A stretch of 64,000 nt of DNA from assembly GCF_003018255.1 (NCBI RefSeq), contig NZ_CP027440.1; one strand, given 5' to 3'. The notes beneath the pieces were generated by a model. The model searched no databases, was not told the origin of the DNA, and worked only from the letters and a program-made list of their open reading frames with translations. A program made the position numbers and the translations under genes. Shown here piece after piece: positions 314-51,670 of the stretch (positions are counted from its first letter, which is position 1; each line of letters starts with the position of its first letter). Source of the DNA: Escherichia coli (GTDB taxonomy: Bacteria; Pseudomonadota; Gammaproteobacteria; Enterobacterales; Enterobacteriaceae).

Positions 314-1363
314 GTGCGGGTATTACTTCGACCTGTTCTGGTACCGGAACTCGGTCTGGTTATCGTTAAGCCAGGCCGTGAATCAATGTCAGCATTCCAT
401 AACGGCAGAATATTGGTGGAGGCGGAACCGAAAAACATGCGCGATCTGCCGTCCGGAGTCGTTCCTGCCGTTCGCCAGCCGCTGGCAGAGGATAAAACAT
501 TACTGCCATTTTTCAGCGATGAGCGGGTTATTCGTGCAGCAGGTGGTGCAGGTGCACTGTCTGACTGGTTATTACGTCACGTGAAATCCTGCCAGTGGCC
601 ACACGGCGATTATCATCACAGCGAAACAGCCATTCACCGTTATGGTACCGGCGCGATGGTGTTGTGCTGGCACTGTGACAACCAGCTGCGCGACCAGACA
701 TCAGAATCACTCGATCAACTTGCTCAGCAGAATCTGGTTGCCTGGATGATTGATGTCATCCGTCACGCAATAAGCGGTACGCAGGAGAGGGAGTTATCGC
801 TGGCCGAATTATCCTGGTGGGCGGCCTGCAATCAGGTGGTGGATGCACTACCTGAGGCAGTAGCGCGTCGTTCGCTGGGATTACCAGCGGAAAAAATCCG
901 CTCCGTATACCGTGAGAGTGACATCGTACCGGGAGAACAGACAGCCATCAGCATACTGAAGCAGCGCACAAAAAATATTGCGCTGCCACTTCACGTCCAC
1001 CAGCAACAAAATCCACCACAGAAAAAAACGGTTGTCAGTATCGCCGTTGATCCGGAGTCTCCTGAATCGTTCATGAGGCGGCCTAAACGTCGCCGTTGGG
1101 TTAATGAGAAATACACGCGCTGGGTAAAGACACAGCCGTGTGCGTGTTGTGGTAAGCCAGCTGACGATCCGCATCACCTGATTGGTCATGGTCAGGGGGG
1201 AGTGGGAACAAAGGCCCACGATATTTTCACGCTACCGTTGTGCCGGGAGCACCACAACGAACTTCATGCAGACCCGCTGAAGTTTGAGAAAAAGTACGGC
1301 TCTCAGATTGAGTTAATTTTTCGTTTTCTTGATCACGCCTTTGCGACTGGCGTGCTCGGGTAA
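314..1363 (+). CDS. DUF968-like phage protein with C-terminal Cys/His (HNH-like) cluster
   Basis: 349-aa ORF, GTG start abutting upstream stop; C-terminus CACCGKP..DPHHLIGHGQ..CREHHNELH resembles YdfU-type proteins that sit beside rusA/Q in lambdoid prophages. Confidence 0.55.
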   Translation: MRVLLRPVLVPELGLVIVKPGRESMSAFHNGRILVEAEPKNMRDLPSGVVPAVRQPLAEDKTLLPFFSDERVIRAAGGAGALSDWLLRHVKSCQWPHGDYHHSETAIHRYGTGAMVLCWHCDNQLRDQTSESLDQLAQQNLVAWMIDVIRHAISGTQERELSLAELSWWAACNQVVDALPEAVARRSLGLPAEKIRSVYRESDIVPGEQTAISILKQRTKNIALPLHVHQQQNPPQKKTVVSIAVDPESPESFMRRPKRRRWVNEKYTRWVKTQPCACCGKPADDPHHLIGHGQGGVGTKAHDIFTLPLCREHHNELHADPLKFEKKYGSQIELIFRFLDHAFATGVLG

Positions 1364-1375
1364 AAGAGGTGACTG

Positions 1376-1738
1376 ATGCTCATAGATTTGGTTTTACCTT
1401 ACCCGCCGACGGTGAACACTTACTGGCGACGCCGTGGCAGCACATATTTTGTATCAAAAGCCGGGGAGCGTTATCGCCGGGCAGTGGCGCTTATTGTTCG
1501 CCAGCAGCGACTGAAATTAAGCCTGTCCGGACGGCTGGCAATAAAAATTATTGCAGAGCCACCGGATAAGCGCCGCCGTGACCTGGACAATATTCTGAAA
1601 GCACCGCTGGATGCGCTGACGCACGCGGGGTTGTTAATGGACGATGAGCAGTTTGATGAAATCAATATTGTACGTGGCAAGCCAGTATCTGGTGGACGGC
1701 TGGAGATAAGAATTACAGAGGTGGGTGTGCATGAATAA
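1376..1738 (+). CDS. rusA: Holliday-junction resolvase RusA
   Basis: 120-aa product of typical RusA length, with acidic DLDN motif; located immediately upstream of Q. Confidence 0.85.
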   Translation: MLIDLVLPYPPTVNTYWRRRGSTYFVSKAGERYRRAVALIVRQQRLKLSLSGRLAIKIIAEPPDKRRRDLDNILKAPLDALTHAGLLMDDEQFDEINIVRGKPVSGGRLEIRITEVGVHE

Positions 1739-2396
1739 CCAGTATTTACAGTTTGTTCGTGAGCAACTCATGATTGCCACTGCGGATCTTAGTGGGTCGA
1801 CAAAAGGCCAGCTGGAAGTCTGGCAGGAAAATGCCCTGTTCGATACAGGGCGTTACAGACGCAAAAAAATTCGTTACCGCGATGAGGTAACCGGAAAAAT
1901 GATCACGCGGGATAATCCCCCGATCCCGGGCAAACAATCACTGGCGAAAGGCTCATCAATTGCCCTGGTCAGTCCGGTTGAGTTTTCGACATCATCATGG
2001 CGACGCGCCGTTCTGTCTCTTGAAGAACATCATAAAGCCTGGCTGCTGTGGTGTTACAGCGGTAGCATTTGCTGGGAGCGTCAGATCGCGATAACGCAGT
2101 GGGCGTGGACTGAATTTAATGCTCAATCCGGTACCAGAAAAATTGCAGGAAAAACTCTGGTGCGCCTGAAGACGTTGATCTGGTTGGCGGCGCAGGCGGT
2201 AAAAGCTGAGTTTTTTGGTGGGGAAGGCTACGAATACCAGGAACTGGCGTTACTGGTGGGAGTAACAACCAAAAACTGGTCCAAGACATTTACTGGTCAC
2301 TGGGTTGCAATGAAACACATTTTTCATCGGCTGGATAGTGAAGCTTTATTGTTGGTGGAGGGAACACGTTCAAAACAAAAGGCGGCATTTTCATAG
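1731..2396 (+). CDS. Q: late-gene antiterminator Q
   Basis: ATG at 1731 overlaps the rusA stop; ~221-aa protein in the canonical Q position, followed by a promoter plus short-transcript terminator (pR'/tR'-like). Confidence 0.7.
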   Translation: MNNQYLQFVREQLMIATADLSGSTKGQLEVWQENALFDTGRYRRKKIRYRDEVTGKMITRDNPPIPGKQSLAKGSSIALVSPVEFSTSSWRRAVLSLEEHHKAWLLWCYSGSICWERQIAITQWAWTEFNAQSGTRKIAGKTLVRLKTLIWLAAQAVKAEFFGGEGYEYQELALLVGVTTKNWSKTFTGHWVAMKHIFHRLDSEALLLVEGTRSKQKAAFS

Positions 2397-2403
2397 CAAA
2401 GTA

Positions 2404-2432
2404 TTGCAAAAGTAGATAAAAAGGCATATATT
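2404..2432 (+). promoter_or_regulatory. candidate late promoter pR' (TTGCAA-17 nt-TATATT)
   Basis: Sigma70-like -35/-10 with 17-nt spacer directly downstream of the Q stop. Confidence 0.5.
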
Positions 2433-2482
2433 TCGTGTAAATCTGATATTTTGCCGTTATTATACGTGATGGCAAAGCCACT

Positions 2483-2509
2483 AAAACCCGTGACCGAGCG
2501 GGTTTTTTA
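2483..2509 (+). terminator. intrinsic terminator (tR'-like)
   Basis: 8-bp stem AAAACCCG/CGGGTTTT with 8-nt loop, followed by T-run; ~50 nt downstream of the candidate pR'. Confidence 0.6.
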
Positions 2510-2649
2510 CCCCCCAAAAAATGGCATAGACATTAAACGTGATGACGATTGTGCCAATACTTTCTCCATCAATGACGCCCCTTGACTGCATGGAATCCAA
2601 TTTGTTATGTAATGTGTGTTGATATTTTTGAGTTGTTAATGGTGTTACT

Positions 2650-3363
2650 ATGGATGACAGTGCTCTGCTCAGAAACTCTTCACTTTTTGTTGCTTATATG
2701 GGCTGTCTCGGATGGGGGAGCGCTTATTTCTATGGATGGGGTACTTCATTTTACTATGGCTTTCCATGGTGGGTTGTCGGGGCTGGTGTCGATGATGTAG
2801 CACGAAGTTTGTTTTATGCTGTGACAGTTATTGTTATATTCCTTATTGGATGGGGAGTTGGTATTGTTTTCTTTTTGGGCATAAAACAAAAGCGCAATAT
2901 ACAAAATTTGAGTTTTATCCGGCTTTTTCTCGCGATATTGCTGCTTTTTATTCCACCTGTTCTGGAGTTTTCTGTAATTCATCAGCATGTTGAGCCAGAT
3001 GTACTGATTTTCTGCGTTCTTGCTGCCTTTGCAATCACGCTTTTTGTCAGGTCTGGAAGAAGACTTGTTTCAGTCAAATGTTTTTCGGAAATGTCTGTTA
3101 TTCGCCATCACCGAATTGAGTTCATGATGGCTGGGTTTATGATTTATTTCTGGGCATTCTCTCTTATTGCCGGTTGGTACAAACCACAGTTTAAGAGGGA
3201 ATATCAGGCGGTCCACTATGAGAATGTATGGTATTACATTATTGCGCGCTATGATGATCGTCTGGTGTTATCGAAATCATACAGGAGTGGGGGTAAGAAA
3301 TTCGTTATATTTAATAGCGGAAATATTAATGATTTTGAAATTAATACTGTCAGAGTACGTTAA
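2650..3363 (+). CDS. polytopic inner-membrane protein, function unknown (cargo gene)
   Basis: 237-aa ORF with several long hydrophobic Trp/Gly/Phe-rich segments; AT-rich; first gene after pR'/tR'. Confidence 0.5.
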   Translation: MDDSALLRNSSLFVAYMGCLGWGSAYFYGWGTSFYYGFPWWVVGAGVDDVARSLFYAVTVIVIFLIGWGVGIVFFLGIKQKRNIQNLSFIRLFLAILLLFIPPVLEFSVIHQHVEPDVLIFCVLAAFAITLFVRSGRRLVSVKCFSEMSVIRHHRIEFMMAGFMIYFWAFSLIAGWYKPQFKREYQAVHYENVWYYIIARYDDRLVLSKSYRSGGKKFVIFNSGNINDFEINTVRVR

Positions 3364-3536
3364 AATTTCCTGAGTAATAAAGATTTTACTGCCCGGCATT
3401 GAGCGGCTTTTTTATGCCAGAAAAATGGTGCAGTACATAAAATGTGCAGGTGGTTATTAATACCGGTCTTTCAGCTTGCTGGCTTTTTTGACAAGAGTTA
3501 TTGGTGTGTCACGTTAACCGGAAAAGGGAAAAAGAC

Positions 3537-3734
3537 ATGCTGAAACAGCAGGATATGACAGAAACCGCCAGAGCAGTTTTTAATGAATTAAGTGCCACCG
3601 AACCGGCGACAGTCGGGGAGATTGCACAGAATACGTACCTTTCACGCGAACGCTGCCAGCTAATACTGACCCAGCTTGTTATGGCGGGTCTGGCAGACTA
3701 TCAGTTCGGTTGTTACAGACGCCTTCAGTCCTGA
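3537..3734 (+). CDS. small putative DNA-binding protein
   Basis: 65 aa from internal ATG of ORF 3501..3734; stop codon embedded in a terminator hairpin; lies upstream of the methyltransferase gene. Confidence 0.4.
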   Translation: MLKQQDMTETARAVFNELSATEPATVGEIAQNTYLSRERCQLILTQLVMAGLADYQFGCYRRLQS

Positions 3735-3746
3735 AGGCTTTTTTAT
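3721..3746 (+). terminator. intrinsic terminator
   Basis: GCCTTCAG-tcc-TGAAGGC stem-loop followed by TTTTTTAT. Confidence 0.6.
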
Positions 3747-3884: not shown

Positions 3885-4943
3885 ATGTTTAATACTGTAA
3901 AAATATCCAGTTGTGAGTTAATCAACGCTGACTGCCTGGAATTTATCCGGTCGTTACCCGAAAATTCTGTTGACCTGATAGTCACGGACCCGCCGTACTT
4001 TAAAGTGAAGCCTGAGGGCTGGGATAACCAGTGGAAGGGCGACGATGACTACCTGAAGTGGCTGGACCTGTGTCTGGCGCAGTTCTGGCGGGTGCTGAAA
4101 CCTGCCGGAAGTCTTTACCTGTTCTGTGGCCATCGCCTGGCATCTGACATTGAAATCATGATGCGTGAACGCTTCAGTGTGCTGAACCATATTATCTGGG
4201 CAAAGCCGTCCGGACGCTGGAACGGGTGCAACAAGGAAAGCCTGCGGGCGTATTTCCCCGCCACAGAGCGCATTCTGTTCGCGGAACATTATCAGGGGCC
4301 GTATCGCCCGAAAGATGCCGGGTATGAGGCGAAGGGCAGGGCACTGAAACAGCATGTGATGGCCCCGCTGATTTCTTACTTTCGTGATGCGCGTGCTGCC
4401 CTGGGGATAACGGCAAAACAGATAGTGGATGCCACAGGAAAGAAAAACATGGTGTCGCACTGGTTCAGTGCCAGTCAGTGGCAGCTACCGAACGAAAGCG
4501 ATTATCTGAAATTACAGGCGCTGTTTGCCCGGGTGGCAGAAGAGAAGCATCAGCGGGGGGAACTGGAGAAGCCCCACCACCAGCTGCTGGAGACGTATAC
4601 TTCACTGAACCGGCAGTATGCGGAACTGCAGAGTGAATATAAGCATCTGCGGCGGTATTTTGGCGTGACGGCGCAGGTGCCGTACACGGATGTGTGGACG
4701 CATAAACCGGTGCAGTACTATCCCGGGAAACATCCGTGCGAAAAACCGGCAGAAATGCTGCAGCAGATAATCAGCGCGAGCAGTCGTCCGGGTGACCTGG
4801 TTGCAGATTTTTTCATGGGGTCGGGTTCGACAGTCAAAGCCGCGATGGCGCTGGGGCGTCGTGCAACTGGCGTTGAGCTGGAGACTGAACGTTTTGAGCA
4901 GACGGTCAGGGAAGTTCAGGATTTAGTCAGTCAGAACGGATGA
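3885..4943 (+). CDS. DNA methyltransferase (N6-adenine/N4-cytosine class, DPPY motif)
   Basis: 352-aa ORF with catalytic DPPY motif (IVTDPPY) and C-terminal AdoMet-binding FxGSGS-like motif (FFMGSGST); no adjacent restriction gene seen. Confidence 0.85.
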   Translation: MFNTVKISSCELINADCLEFIRSLPENSVDLIVTDPPYFKVKPEGWDNQWKGDDDYLKWLDLCLAQFWRVLKPAGSLYLFCGHRLASDIEIMMRERFSVLNHIIWAKPSGRWNGCNKESLRAYFPATERILFAEHYQGPYRPKDAGYEAKGRALKQHVMAPLISYFRDARAALGITAKQIVDATGKKNMVSHWFSASQWQLPNESDYLKLQALFARVAEEKHQRGELEKPHHQLLETYTSLNRQYAELQSEYKHLRRYFGVTAQVPYTDVWTHKPVQYYPGKHPCEKPAEMLQQIISASSRPGDLVADFFMGSGSTVKAAMALGRRATGVELETERFEQTVREVQDLVSQNG

Positions 4944-5423: not shown

Positions 5424-5852
5424 ATGTATTGCCGTGCTGTACCTGTTCTTGTTTTGATATTAGCCAGTCTGACAACTGGCTGCACAAAAGATGTATCGAC
5501 AAATAATCATGATGCTTCTCTGTATCACTCAGATAAATTAATAACGTCGCAAAAATTGAGCTCATCGGAACGTACCCCTGATGCCAGTGAAGAAATCCGG
5601 CAGTATGCCATTCAGGTCAGGAAAGCCATAGAAGAACAGTTAAAGGATGCGAGTAAGTATTCAGGAAAAGAGTGTTCACTGAGAATGTATATGGCCCCGA
5701 ATGGTCTTCTGCTACGGGTTAAAAGAGAAAGCGGTGATCCCGATTTATGTCGTGAAGCGATGAATGCAGTAAAGAATGCTGATATACCATCACCACCGTC
5801 TTCAGGAGTATATAAAGCATTTAGAAATGGCGTGCTGGATTTTAAACTCTGA
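5424..5852 (+). CDS. lipoprotein with TolA C-terminal (domain III)-like domain
   Basis: Signal peptide ending in LTTGC lipobox-like motif; C-terminal ~85 aa (GKECSLRMYMAPNGLLLRVKRESGDPDLCREAM..IPSPPSSGVYKAFRNGVLDFKL) aligns with remembered E. coli TolA C-terminus; GGAG RBS. Confidence 0.75.
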   Translation: MYCRAVPVLVLILASLTTGCTKDVSTNNHDASLYHSDKLITSQKLSSSERTPDASEEIRQYAIQVRKAIEEQLKDASKYSGKECSLRMYMAPNGLLLRVKRESGDPDLCREAMNAVKNADIPSPPSSGVYKAFRNGVLDFKL

Positions 5853-5987
5853 CAGGGGGAGAAGATTTTCTCCTGTCCTGATGATTTTGGGGCGCTGGAA
5901 AGATATTGTGCTGTGAAGTGTTAAATCCCTCACAATTCAGTAAGTTGACAGTTGCCTGTCAGACTGAGCATTTGTTAAAAAAATTTC

Positions 5988-6165
5988 GCATGGTGAATCC
6001 CCCTGTGCGGAGGGGCGACTGGTGAACGGTATGATCTCTTTGATGATCGTAAGCGAGAATACGCGGGTTTGGTGTCACCGGGCTGAACTCACCGGGAGGC
6101 ACCCGGCACCATGCTCATGGTGATACAGAAATGCGGCTTCAGCCCCTCTCCGGAGGGGCTTTCTT
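5988..6165 (+). ncRNA. candidate structured sRNA, repeat family A copy 1
   Basis: Promoter-like TTGCCT-18-TAAAAA, then 5' CAUGGUG, hairpin CCCCU-GUGCGG-AGGGG, hairpin CCGGG-AGGCA-CCCGG, 3' CACCAUG pairing back to the 5' end, and terminator GCCCCTC-TCCG-GAGGGGC plus T-run. Confidence 0.45.
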
Positions 6166-6171
6166 ATGGAC

Positions 6172-6547: not shown

Positions 6548-7273
6548 ATGGATGTTGCCTGCTCTGTGGTCCTGATTCGCTATCCGATAGATATTTTTCT
6601 TGAAAAAGAAAAAGTTTCACTCGATGCCGGAAGTGTTATGCTTGTTGCCAGAAATATAAGAGGGCTTTTCTGTGCTTATGCCGACAGAGTGAAAATGGCA
6701 GATATAAGTAACAGCGTCGTCAATCAGTATCTGGAAAGGGAGTGTGAACTGACGGAGTATACACCGACAAAAATGCCTCTTTATTTGATGTCTGATATTT
6801 ACAATACGGAACTGGCGGAGGCTTTAATAACCCAGCATAGTGAATCCAGTGATACTTTGAAGGATTTCTCTGTTATAACCGCATTTTCATGTATCTCCTT
6901 ATTTGCAACAGACAGACGTCTGCCATTATTTTTGTCCGGTGCTGTAAATAATATCAGCTGTAAAGTAAGGGCTATAATTCAGACCGACATATCGGCAGGC
7001 TGGATGCTTGGTGTGATTGCATTACAATTGCATATGAGCGAAAGCTTGTTGAAGCGAAAACTTAAGGATGAAGGTTATAGCTTTAGTCGGTTGTTGCTGG
7101 AGGAGCGAATGCGTGTTGCTGTTAATCTTGTATGTTTCCAGCGAGAGTGTGGACAAGCGATAGCGGAAAAATGTGGTTACTCAAGTAAGTCCTACTTCAT
7201 TTCTGTATTTCACCAGTATTATGGTGCACCACCTGAGAGCTATGCATATTTGCAGAAAGCAGACGTTATCTGA
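6548..7273 (+). CDS. AraC/XylS-family transcriptional regulator (cargo gene)
   Basis: 241-aa ORF with C-terminal dual helix-turn-helix typical of AraC family (..LKDEGYSFSRLLLEERMRVA..IAEKCGYSSKSYFISVFHQYYGAPPESY); start codon uncertain. Confidence 0.7.
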   Translation: MDVACSVVLIRYPIDIFLEKEKVSLDAGSVMLVARNIRGLFCAYADRVKMADISNSVVNQYLERECELTEYTPTKMPLYLMSDIYNTELAEALITQHSESSDTLKDFSVITAFSCISLFATDRRLPLFLSGAVNNISCKVRAIIQTDISAGWMLGVIALQLHMSESLLKRKLKDEGYSFSRLLLEERMRVAVNLVCFQRECGQAIAEKCGYSSKSYFISVFHQYYGAPPESYAYLQKADVI

Positions 7274-42660: not shown

Positions 42661-43130
42661 AACGATAACTCCGTACATTTGAAAATTATCGCCACCTTCA
42701 GGTTCCAATCATCATGGTGGCGAACTGTGCGGGGTTGGAACTACCGGGTACGGAAACCGGCGAGCCTTTCGGCTCCCCCACACAGCCCGCCATAAATCGC
42801 GAATGTGACTGTGCAAACGATATGAAAAAAGACGCGGGCGCGTCTCATATCGCTCCGTAAACATCCGGGGTTCCAATCCCGACGCCAGATTTTGCTGACG
42901 CGTTGGAAATATAGCCCCGGAGGATAAAAACTGTCAACGGGTAAAAAAATTTCCGTTATCAGGAATGTATAAAATTAAAGCAATCGAGCAAAAAAACTCT
43001 CTGCAAAACTAAAAAAGATCTCAATAAAATCAGGCAGTTAAAAACACGGAAAAACGGTATAAAAAAGCATCTCAAAATCCTGTTTTTTCTTTCAGATACA
43101 ATATGTTATTGCATTTTTTAAAACCTGCCA

Positions 43131-51555: not shown

Positions 51556-51582
51556 AAAAAAAAGCCCGCTCATTAGGCGGGC
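51556..51582 (-). terminator. trp attenuator terminator
   Basis: Minus-strand AGCCCGCCTAATGAGCGGGCT hairpin followed by T8, between trpL and trpE. Confidence 0.85.
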
Positions 51583-51625
51583 TGGGTATCTGATTGCTTT
51601 ACGCATGGTGAATACACTGCCCGTT

Positions 51626-51670
51626 TCAGGAAGTGCGCCACCAACCTTTCAGTACGAAAATTGCTTTCAT
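51626..51670 (-). CDS. trpL: trp operon leader peptide ([14 protein letters not shown])
   Basis: 14-codon ORF with tandem Trp codons read directly from the minus strand. Confidence 0.85.

Follow-up and report, generated by a model that had tools for sequence, protein, structure and literature searches.

A TfpB/STM1630-family membrane-protein gene as part of a putative mobile cassette in the first position of a Q-controlled prophage late operon of Escherichia coli

In a 64,000-nucleotide (nt) stretch of Escherichia coli DNA (contig NZ_CP027440.1 of assembly GCF_003018255.1), referred to here as the window, the left end lies inside a lambdoid prophage, and the gene following the late antiterminator gene Q of this prophage encodes a 237-residue membrane protein of the TfpB/STM1630 family. 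We propose that this gene belongs to a mobile accessory cassette of the "moron" type at the head of the late operon controlled by Q, with the cassette comprising the terminator tR' and its linker, a leader of ~140 nt carrying a promoter-like element, the gene itself and a decayed second terminator-linker. In the lysogen, the gene would be expressed at a low level from the sigma-70-like element of the cassette and by leakage through tR'; upon induction, Q-modified RNA polymerase coming from the late promoter pR' would read through tR', which, judging from the architecture of the locus, should result in strong expression. Homologous recombination at the repeated terminator-linker would carry the cassette from phage to phage, and the gene product would act on the periplasmic side of the inner membrane, to the benefit of the bacterial host in animals and not as a lysis protein. 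A mobile moron-type cassette with two modes of expression and an envelope factor of benefit to the host is, as a whole, the best explanation we can offer, and we hold it tentatively. Its parts differ in strength: the cassette architecture and the membrane-protein nature of the product are highly probable, dual transcription is favored with some reserve, and a role as a lysogenic-conversion envelope factor with host benefit is put forward with more doubt than conviction.

The reading frame of the gene was intact in 82 of the 83 related loci with full-length matches, the lone truncated copy adjoining an insertion sequence (IS) element, and the pairwise ratio of nonsynonymous to synonymous substitutions (dN/dS) averaged 0.157 across related loci, indicating that the open reading frame (ORF) is a real gene under purifying selection. 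This selection was unevenly distributed, with a dN/dS of 0.047 for residues 1-57 vs. 0.23-0.25 for the middle and C-terminal parts, and no region of the gene had a value above 1. At 39.8% G+C (36.6% at third codon positions), the gene stands apart from Q (49%), the downstream methyltransferase gene (54%) and the window (51.7%). A first-pass annotation of this DNA had described an AT-rich, 237-residue polytopic membrane ORF as the first after the late switch, a description borne out by the base composition, by at least four hydrophobic spans in the hydropathy profile and by five transmembrane helices in an AlphaFold2 model; nor is the ORF absent or disrupted in all close relatives, an outcome that would have spoken against that proposal. 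Two small ORFs at 2451-2585 and 2582-2800 were dismissed, since they either run across the terminator or share sequence with the conserved frame.

The same annotation had found no recognisable family for the protein, which proved to be wrong. The protein matched PHROG_1521 with E = 2.6e-85 over residues 17-237, all 104 homologues, among them the nearest cluster representatives (95-97% identical), carry a precomputed Pfam assignment to PF27470 ("TfpB"), and the newest RefSeq/PGAP name of the identical protein WP_000342737.1 is "STM1630 family protein". By sequence, the protein is thus a member of the TfpB/STM1630 family (PF27470; PHROG_1521). A direct Pfam-A scan with the protein and all 43 aligned members returned noise only, and an NCBIfam scan of the protein returned no match, because the releases used lack a model of this family (PF27470 in the case of Pfam-A). 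In a set of 1.84 billion proteins, this small family has 72 representatives at 50% identity. Members at 23-100% identity occur in Enterobacteriaceae, Pasteurellaceae, Neisseriaceae and Moraxellaceae; none bears a name in the databases they come from, nearly all belong to animal-associated bacteria, and most lie at non-phage chromosomal sites. A Salmonella Typhimurium member (P0069) is 47% identical over its full length, carries PF27470 and adjoins sseJ, which identifies it as STM1630; it has the same length and architecture as the present protein but differs in being chromosomal, between steB and sseJ, and not part of a prophage late operon, with an unrelated region upstream. TfpB of Moraxella bovis is 29% identical over residues 10-232, or ~95% of the length (BLASTP E = 2e-27), and Moraxella TfpB shares the N-terminal SS-x-x-x-AY...W-x-x-AY-x-YGWG...YG[FY]PWW...ARSL and the C-terminal YYIL...IL motifs. 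In M. lacunata NCTC10359, the TfpB gene is truncated at 195 residues (L115, 4971-5558) vs. 261 residues in M. bovis (L111, 491-1276). A remote branch of the family, 15-18% identical and with a weak PF27470 match, always follows an SRAP/YedK-type gene (L094, 5262-6711; L090-L092, 5276-6741), and the copy in L094 adjoins umuDC and P2-like tail genes.

An AlphaFold2 model built on an alignment with remote homologues had a mean predicted local distance difference test score (pLDDT) of 81.8 and a predicted template modeling score of 0.76, superseding an earlier model from a shallow alignment that was poor (pLDDT 65). In this model, five long helices (residues 5-36, 47-81, 88-111, 116-136 and 155-181) precede a five-stranded C-terminal beta domain of ~55 residues (184-235), so that topology prediction, a check suggested in the first-pass annotation, arrived at five transmembrane helices and a beta domain. 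Based on alignments and the model, this architecture is shared by the family, comprising an N-terminal aromatic/Gly motif, five transmembrane helices and the C-terminal beta domain. A structure search of AFDB50 returned only uncharacterised family members, aligning at template modeling scores (TM-scores) of 0.8-0.9; PDB sequence searches with the protein and its profile gave no match, BFVD gave no significant structural match, and no solved structure alike was found. The loops 78-90 and 134-156 are positively charged, which would place both in the cytoplasm and, as a consequence, the loop 37-46 (YGFPWWVVGAG), the outer half of helix 1 and the C-terminal domain in the periplasm. The predicted topology therefore has a cytoplasmic N-terminus, five transmembrane helices and a periplasmic beta domain, with residues 45, 112 and 237 on the outer and residues 85 and 145 on the inner side.

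The stretch GWGSAYFY-GWGTSFYY-GFPWW...DD-x-ARSLF was invariant or nearly so down to 41% overall identity, with W40, W41, D48 and R52 among the invariant residues, and the N-terminal motif was nearly invariant from E. coli to Yersinia. The parts of the protein under the tightest constraint are predicted to lie at the periplasmic face; they are the YGFPWW loop, the beginning of the second transmembrane helix and the GWG-x-x-aromatic motif, which is duplicated. As judged from the DNA, in which an in-frame tandem duplication (repeat D3, Table 1) encodes the core of this motif, the most conserved motif of the family originated by internal duplication of an 8-residue unit.

The gene lies behind a late switch of the lambdoid type. 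The Q protein matched Pfam PF06323 (E = 4e-89) and PHROG_304, is named "bacteriophage antitermination protein Q" in RefSeq and is 76% identical to the Q82-like Q of phage 434; by these similarities, the Q gene is of the phage 82 family. Solved Q structures include Q21 and Q-lambda, and no sequence relation was found between the present Q protein and solved structures. The promoter-like sequence TTGCAA-17-TATATT downstream of Q matches the consensus at 9 of 12 positions in a consensus scan, a match that by itself is not above chance (5 sites in 3 kb, with 3.9 to be expected). A 50-nt block that includes it is conserved beside the Q82-type Q genes of phage 434, of other E. coli prophages and of Enterobacter, Klebsiella and Salmonella Gifsy-1 phages; from this conservation we infer that it functions as the late promoter. 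A -10-like TGATATT at 2444-2450, which may belong to a sigma-dependent promoter-proximal pause, is conserved as well. The stem of the terminator tR' (2483-2506) begins 51 nt past the -10 hexamer and is followed directly by a U run; the hairpin has a folding energy of -11.9 kcal/mol (z = -3.67), none of 200 shuffled sequences being as stable, and was missed by a pattern scan because its stem is lengthened by A/U pairs that reach into the T run. The first-pass annotation had predicted a promoter directly after Q, a strong intrinsic terminator ~50 nt past it and, from these, the arrangement of pR', short transcript and tR' on which Q acts, and the sequence bears out this layout, downstream of a Q82-type Q gene.

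The 72-nt unit of two hairpins downstream of the promoter (2439-2510), the second hairpin being that of the terminator, folded at -24.1 kcal/mol (z = -4.5). By analogy, it is best read as a short terminated pR' RNA comparable to StxS of Shiga toxin (Stx) phages, a short RNA derived from a terminated late-promoter transcript (PMC7547250). The short transcript has an identical 14-nt 5' end with isrJ, and its match to the Rfam isrJ family is below threshold (20 bits vs. a gathering score of 37, E = 0.8). In Gifsy-1, the conserved promoter block sits 3' of the Q82-type Q gene, between STM2616 and a tRNA-Arg gene, a site to which isrJ probably maps. IsrJ may be no more than the RNA that results from termination at the late promoter of Q82-type phages, as StxS is for Stx phages. 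StxS, IsrJ and the present RNA have in common a constitutive late promoter and an intrinsic terminator right behind Q, between them giving a two-hairpin RNA of ~70 nt, but the present RNA differs from IsrJ by its Rfam score, and the Salmonella IsrJ is an Hfq-binding small RNA.

The evidence for a mobile cassette came from repeated sequence at its borders and from relatives that carry or lack it. A direct repeat (D1; 2487-2520 and 3392-3425, 74% identity, spacing 905 nt) comprises the terminator and the first ~30-60 nt downstream of it. In a three-way alignment, a relative (L048) with the same Q, pR' and tR' has these joined straight to the next late gene, which encodes a 65-residue protein, without the 905-nt unit, and its intact tR' and the sequence after it align to the right repeat copy of the window. 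Taken together, the repeat and this relative suggest that the gene is an insertion/deletion unit bounded by a repeated terminator-linker. In PPompW phages, which lack the gene, tRNA genes come straight after Q, pR' and tR'. The gene thus has two hallmarks of a moron, namely presence and absence in collinear relatives at sharp boundaries and a base composition unlike that of the flanking genes. On the sequence evidence, recombination at the repeated terminator-linker would be a simple way for the gene to enter the Q-proximal slot, and we surmise that recombination there has placed the cassette right after Q genes of differing types.

A scan of viral contigs yielded 80 loci, 79 of which had enough upstream sequence for the distance to Q to be counted. 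In 67 of these 79, the gene starts 237-282 nt past the Q stop codon, a count of prevalence and not of independent events, as the loci are not independent and many are near-identical E. coli prophages. By sequence, the Q genes 5' of the cassette fall into four types, which belong to three PHROG families: among the 67 loci, 46 have a Q82-type gene, 14 a lambda-like gene of 273 residues, 6 lambda Q and 1 a PHROG_753 gene, with 5 more of the last type at 456 nt. The remaining contexts were found in one copy each, i.e. after stx1B, after an anti-repressor gene and after an IS element; one copy lies after a truncated Q, 3' of a methyltransferase gene, and one is followed by a CtxA-like toxin gene. 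The homologue directly 3' of stx1A/stx1B (L075, 4540-6711) is 68% identical, and the one directly 5' of the CtxA-like ADP-ribosyltransferase toxin gene (L069, 6001-7968) is 80% identical.

In an alignment of 190 nt upstream of the gene, a similar terminator hairpin was present in nearly all contexts, whatever lies upstream, and terminator, leader and promoter-like element are conserved together even behind the anti-repressor gene, the IS element or the Q remnant. The leader sequence that travels with the gene is TTAAACGTGATGRCGATTGTG, and the leader motif given in Table 1 is unique in the window. Across 46 unique upstream regions, conservation is at least 90% in both blocks of the promoter-like element TTGACT-N18-TGtTATGTA and the spacer varies, and phage 434 carries the same TTGAC-N17/18-TTATG element upstream. 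We infer from this pattern that the element is a candidate promoter belonging to the cassette. Since the cassette brings its own leader, promoter-like element and terminator, read-through driven by Q is probably not its sole mode of expression.

The family is widespread in E. coli. A sensitive DNA search found the gene in 1,196 of 5,426 complete genomes (22%), the median carrier having it at two places, and a Q82-type Q module in 1,391 genomes. The O157:H7 copy lies in a 434-like late region in the order LpxR, YlcG, Q, TfpB-family gene, DUF3927 and holin. In a phage collection, the gene was present only in phages 434 and 2B8, at the same position. The prophage of the window is 100% identical to those of cattle- and human-derived Shiga toxin-producing E. 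coli, including O43, O104:H21 and O22:H8, and 99.9% identical to that of O113:H21.

As for function, we favor a benefit to the host because of the virulence grouping and attenuation reported for STM1630, the animal-associated members of the family and a prophage slot that is shared with toxin genes (stx1AB in L075, the CtxA-like gene in L069). In transcription profiling, STM1630, the one relative on which experimental work exists, groups with virulence genes of the Salmonella pathogenicity island 2 (SPI-2)/PhoP type (PMC2639726), and STM1630 transposon mutants are reported to be attenuated in calves and chickens (PMC6785131 S1 Text). In addition, STM1630 was picked for macrophage assays from RNA sequencing data.

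Several observations weigh against the combined reading of a mobile, dually expressed cassette with host benefit, in addition to the redundancy of the viral loci mentioned above: 1) the -10 hexamer of the candidate cassette promoter, TATGTA, is weak and escaped the consensus scan, its last base being A and not T; 2) the downstream terminator hairpin is decayed (-4.3 kcal/mol, z = 0.11) with its U run kept, so that the classical definition of a moron applies only in part; 3) the topology is based on charge bias and the model, and the C-terminal domain has a net positive charge, unusual for a periplasmic domain; 4) deletion of STM1630 had no effect on replication in macrophages or growth in lysogeny broth; 5) STM1630 has a different upstream region, and its role may not transfer to the phage copies; 6) the tight linkage to Q and tR' could reflect a role in lytic growth and not in the lysogen.

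The main rival to a host-benefit factor is superinfection exclusion or another form of defence, in which the inner-membrane protein would block entry of an incoming phage genome at the periplasmic face, protecting the lysogen via its own promoter and the induced cell via Q read-through. Exclusion proteins of this type, such as HK97 gp15, P22 SieA and T4 Imm, are common prophage cargo. In favor of this reading, the present protein is a polytopic inner-membrane protein of a prophage with its conserved surfaces predicted to be periplasmic, encoded by an accessory cassette with its own promoter-like element; its middle and C-terminal parts evolve ~5 times faster than the N-terminus (dN/dS 0.23-0.25 vs. 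0.05), and remote members occupy cargo spots of mobile elements beside SRAP, umuDC and a P2-like prophage. However, PADLOC models gave no credible match (best AbiC, E = 0.24), the structure searches found no viral or solved counterpart, no region with dN/dS > 1 was seen, and many homologues are single chromosomal genes outside prophages, with the Salmonella copy co-regulated with virulence genes. On balance we consider exclusion unlikely, while giving it some weight. We find a role as an accessory factor of pilins or pseudopilins, with the phage copy modulating or disabling such a machine in E. coli, quite improbable. This idea draws on the similarity to M. bovis TfpB and on the position of tfpB, which in M. 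lacunata as in M. bovis comes right behind the type IV pilin gene that is expressed, within the invertible segment of the pilin locus beside piv and under piv control; pilins are anchored in the inner membrane with periplasmic domains, which would fit the predicted active face. The N-terminal pilin signature, however, was found within 5 kb at Moraxella loci only and at none of the scanned loci of Salmonella or other enterobacteria, Pasteurellaceae or Neisseriaceae, so that the pilin link was rejected as a family-wide property and the name TfpB is no functional assignment for the family. For TfpB itself, no paper was found in the literature, where matches to the acronym were unrelated uses and accessions and family identifiers had no matches.

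A membrane protein encoded first on the late transcript might also be expected to modulate the timing of lysis, as a holin, an antiholin or another regulator of membrane integrity, and lysis timing was the candidate role put first in the first-pass annotation. Such a role is very improbable in our view, since 237 residues with five transmembrane helices and a beta domain are unlike the known holin classes, no match to a holin, antiholin or spanin family was found, a complete lysis cassette ~9 kb downstream is present also in relatives without a TfpB-family gene, and chromosomal homologues in Salmonella, Pasteurellaceae, Neisseria and Moraxella, at non-phage loci, argue against a lysis-specific role. 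Holin and antiholin were therefore rejected for wrong size and context, in agreement with the earlier statement that this is not a lysis gene, and no homologue was annotated as either; a transporter, which had also been suggested, was dropped for want of support from fold or family. Equally little credence is due to the gene being a selectively neutral hitch-hiker, kept by efficient recombination of the terminator-linker into the Q-proximal slot. Its boundaries are indeed repeated homologous sequence and the gene is dispensable, there being relatives without it, but the strong purifying selection with 82 of 83 copies intact, the presence in ~22% of complete E. coli genomes at a median of 2 copies and the near-invariance of the N-terminal motif as far as Yersinia all speak against this.

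We also entertain, as a speculation we would not rate as likely, that phage TfpB represents a class of Q-switched inner-membrane effectors, in which the invariant periplasmic aromatic/Gly motif binds a conserved partner anchored in the membrane, for instance a component of phage entry, a pilin or pseudopilin, or a lipid-linked precursor. If true, binding of this partner would remodel the cell surface or close a route of entry, and the coupling to tR' across four Q types would be functional, with leakage in the lysogen and a burst upon induction, and not a by-product of recombination.

Accessory genes in the leader of a lambdoid late operon, the slot of stx, are an arrangement of a known kind, and the locus is ordinary in its organization. 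Late-operon cargo and morons of this sort include stx in 933W-type phages, HK97 gp15 and lambda bor and lom. The present gene is like stx and moron cargo in its deviant base composition, its absence from close relatives and its place between Q/tR' and the lysis genes, and, as predicted here, in co-transcription with the late genes upon Q antitermination. It is unlike toxin or outer-membrane morons in that its product is an inner-membrane protein, with the promoter and terminator of the cassette being putative and one terminator copy decayed. The stx-like slot proposed in the first-pass annotation is supported, in that the gene is the first ORF of the late-operon leader and homologues lie beside stx1B and the CtxA-like gene. 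The closest phage relative is CPT_434_68 of phage 434, a "putative membrane protein" (OL657226) with 56% identity over the full length and an identical gene in O157:H7 prophages; the order of a Q82-type Q, promoter, terminator and TfpB-family gene is the same, but the downstream neighbors differ, being DUF3927/TciB, a NanS esterase and a holin in phage 434 vs. the 65-residue gene, methyltransferase, tRNAs, TolA-like and AraC-type genes in the window. Moraxella TfpB, in its turn, differs by residing in the invertible pilin segment. In the literature searched, we found no paper on the phage 434 record and no description of the near-constant placement right after Q genes of differing types, of tR' and leader moving with the gene, or of a connection that ties the phage genes to STM1630 and to Moraxella TfpB. 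What makes the locus of interest is a widespread, uncharacterised family that occurs in ~22% of complete E. coli genomes, in O157:H7 and phage 434 and beside toxin genes. The fixed slot behind four Q types, the near-invariant motif and the relatives in a Salmonella virulence regulon and the Moraxella pilin switch render it tractable for studying effects of prophages on the envelope.

Table 1. Features of the Q-proximal part of the late operon and its surroundings, in window coordinates
Feature	Position	Strand	Remarks
DUF968/NinG-like gene	314-1363		
rusA	1376-1738		
Q82-type late antiterminator gene Q	1731-2396	+	221 residues from ATG 1731; in-frame GTG also at 1725
Putative late promoter, pR' type	2404-2432	+	-35 TTGCAA (2404-2409), 17-nt spacer, -10 TATATT (2427-2432)
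Predicted short terminated pR' transcript	2436-2508	+	12-bp hairpin 2449-2477 plus terminator hairpin; IsrJ-like
Intrinsic terminator tR'	2483-2508	+	AAAACCCG-loop-CGGGUUUU plus U run
Left terminator-linker copy (repeat D1)	2487-2520	+	homology continues to ~2555
Conserved cassette leader, ~140 nt	2511-2649	+	TTAAACGTGATGACGATTGTG at 2533-2553; 46 unique upstream regions with differing upstream genes
Candidate cassette promoter	2582-2611	+	-35 TTGACT (2582-2587), 18-nt spacer, extended -10 TGtTATGTA (2603-2611)
TfpB/STM1630-family membrane-protein gene	2650-3363	+	237 residues
In-frame 24-nt tandem duplication (repeat D3)	2710-2757	+	GWGSAYFY / GWGTSFYY, core of the most conserved motif
Right terminator-linker copy (repeat D1)	3389-3425	+	decayed hairpin plus U run
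Next late-leader gene	3537-3734	+	65 residues, PHROG_331
DNA methyltransferase, next late-leader cargo gene	3885-4943	+	PHROG_67 and PHROG_6025; RefSeq annotation
STnc100 copies	5959-6171, 7931-8126, 8190-8399, 8460-8659, 8721-8910	+	

Downstream of the cassette, the 65-residue PHROG_331 gene is the one that stands directly 3' of tR' in relatives lacking the cassette. It is always located 5' of a DNA methyltransferase gene, carries a terminator-like hairpin at 3721-3738, and weakly matches proteins associated with defence in regions of winged-helix type. The methyltransferase gene is followed by two tRNA genes, a gene resembling the C-terminal part of TolA, a regulator of AraC/YdeO type, a NanS-type esterase and the lysis cassette (class II holin, lysozyme and spanin), with holin and lysozyme at ~11.8-12.9 kb.

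The TolA-like protein (142 residues; 5424-5852, + strand) matches TIGR02794 with its C-terminal part at 75.9 bits, above the cut-off, and its gene immediately follows the tRNA genes of the phage, in the place that stx has in Stx phages; this protein might serve as a decoy of TolA against filamentous phages or colicins that depend on Tol. The AraC-family regulator (6548-7273, + strand), another cargo gene of the late leader, is closest to YdeO and GadX with scores under the equivalog cut-offs, and presumably resembles the prophage-encoded Psr regulators of enterohemorrhagic E. coli. In addition, the leader of the late operon harbors five copies of the STnc100 small RNA family (Rfam RF02076; ~200 nt, 119-172 bits), four of them in tandem just 5' of the NanS-type esterase gene. 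Farther along, C4 antisense RNA and isrK, immunity RNAs of the P1/P7 type, were found at 42713-42901 and 51556-51649 (both - strand), with a Trp operon leader beyond, suggesting that the window also spans a second immunity-type module and chromosomal flank near trp.

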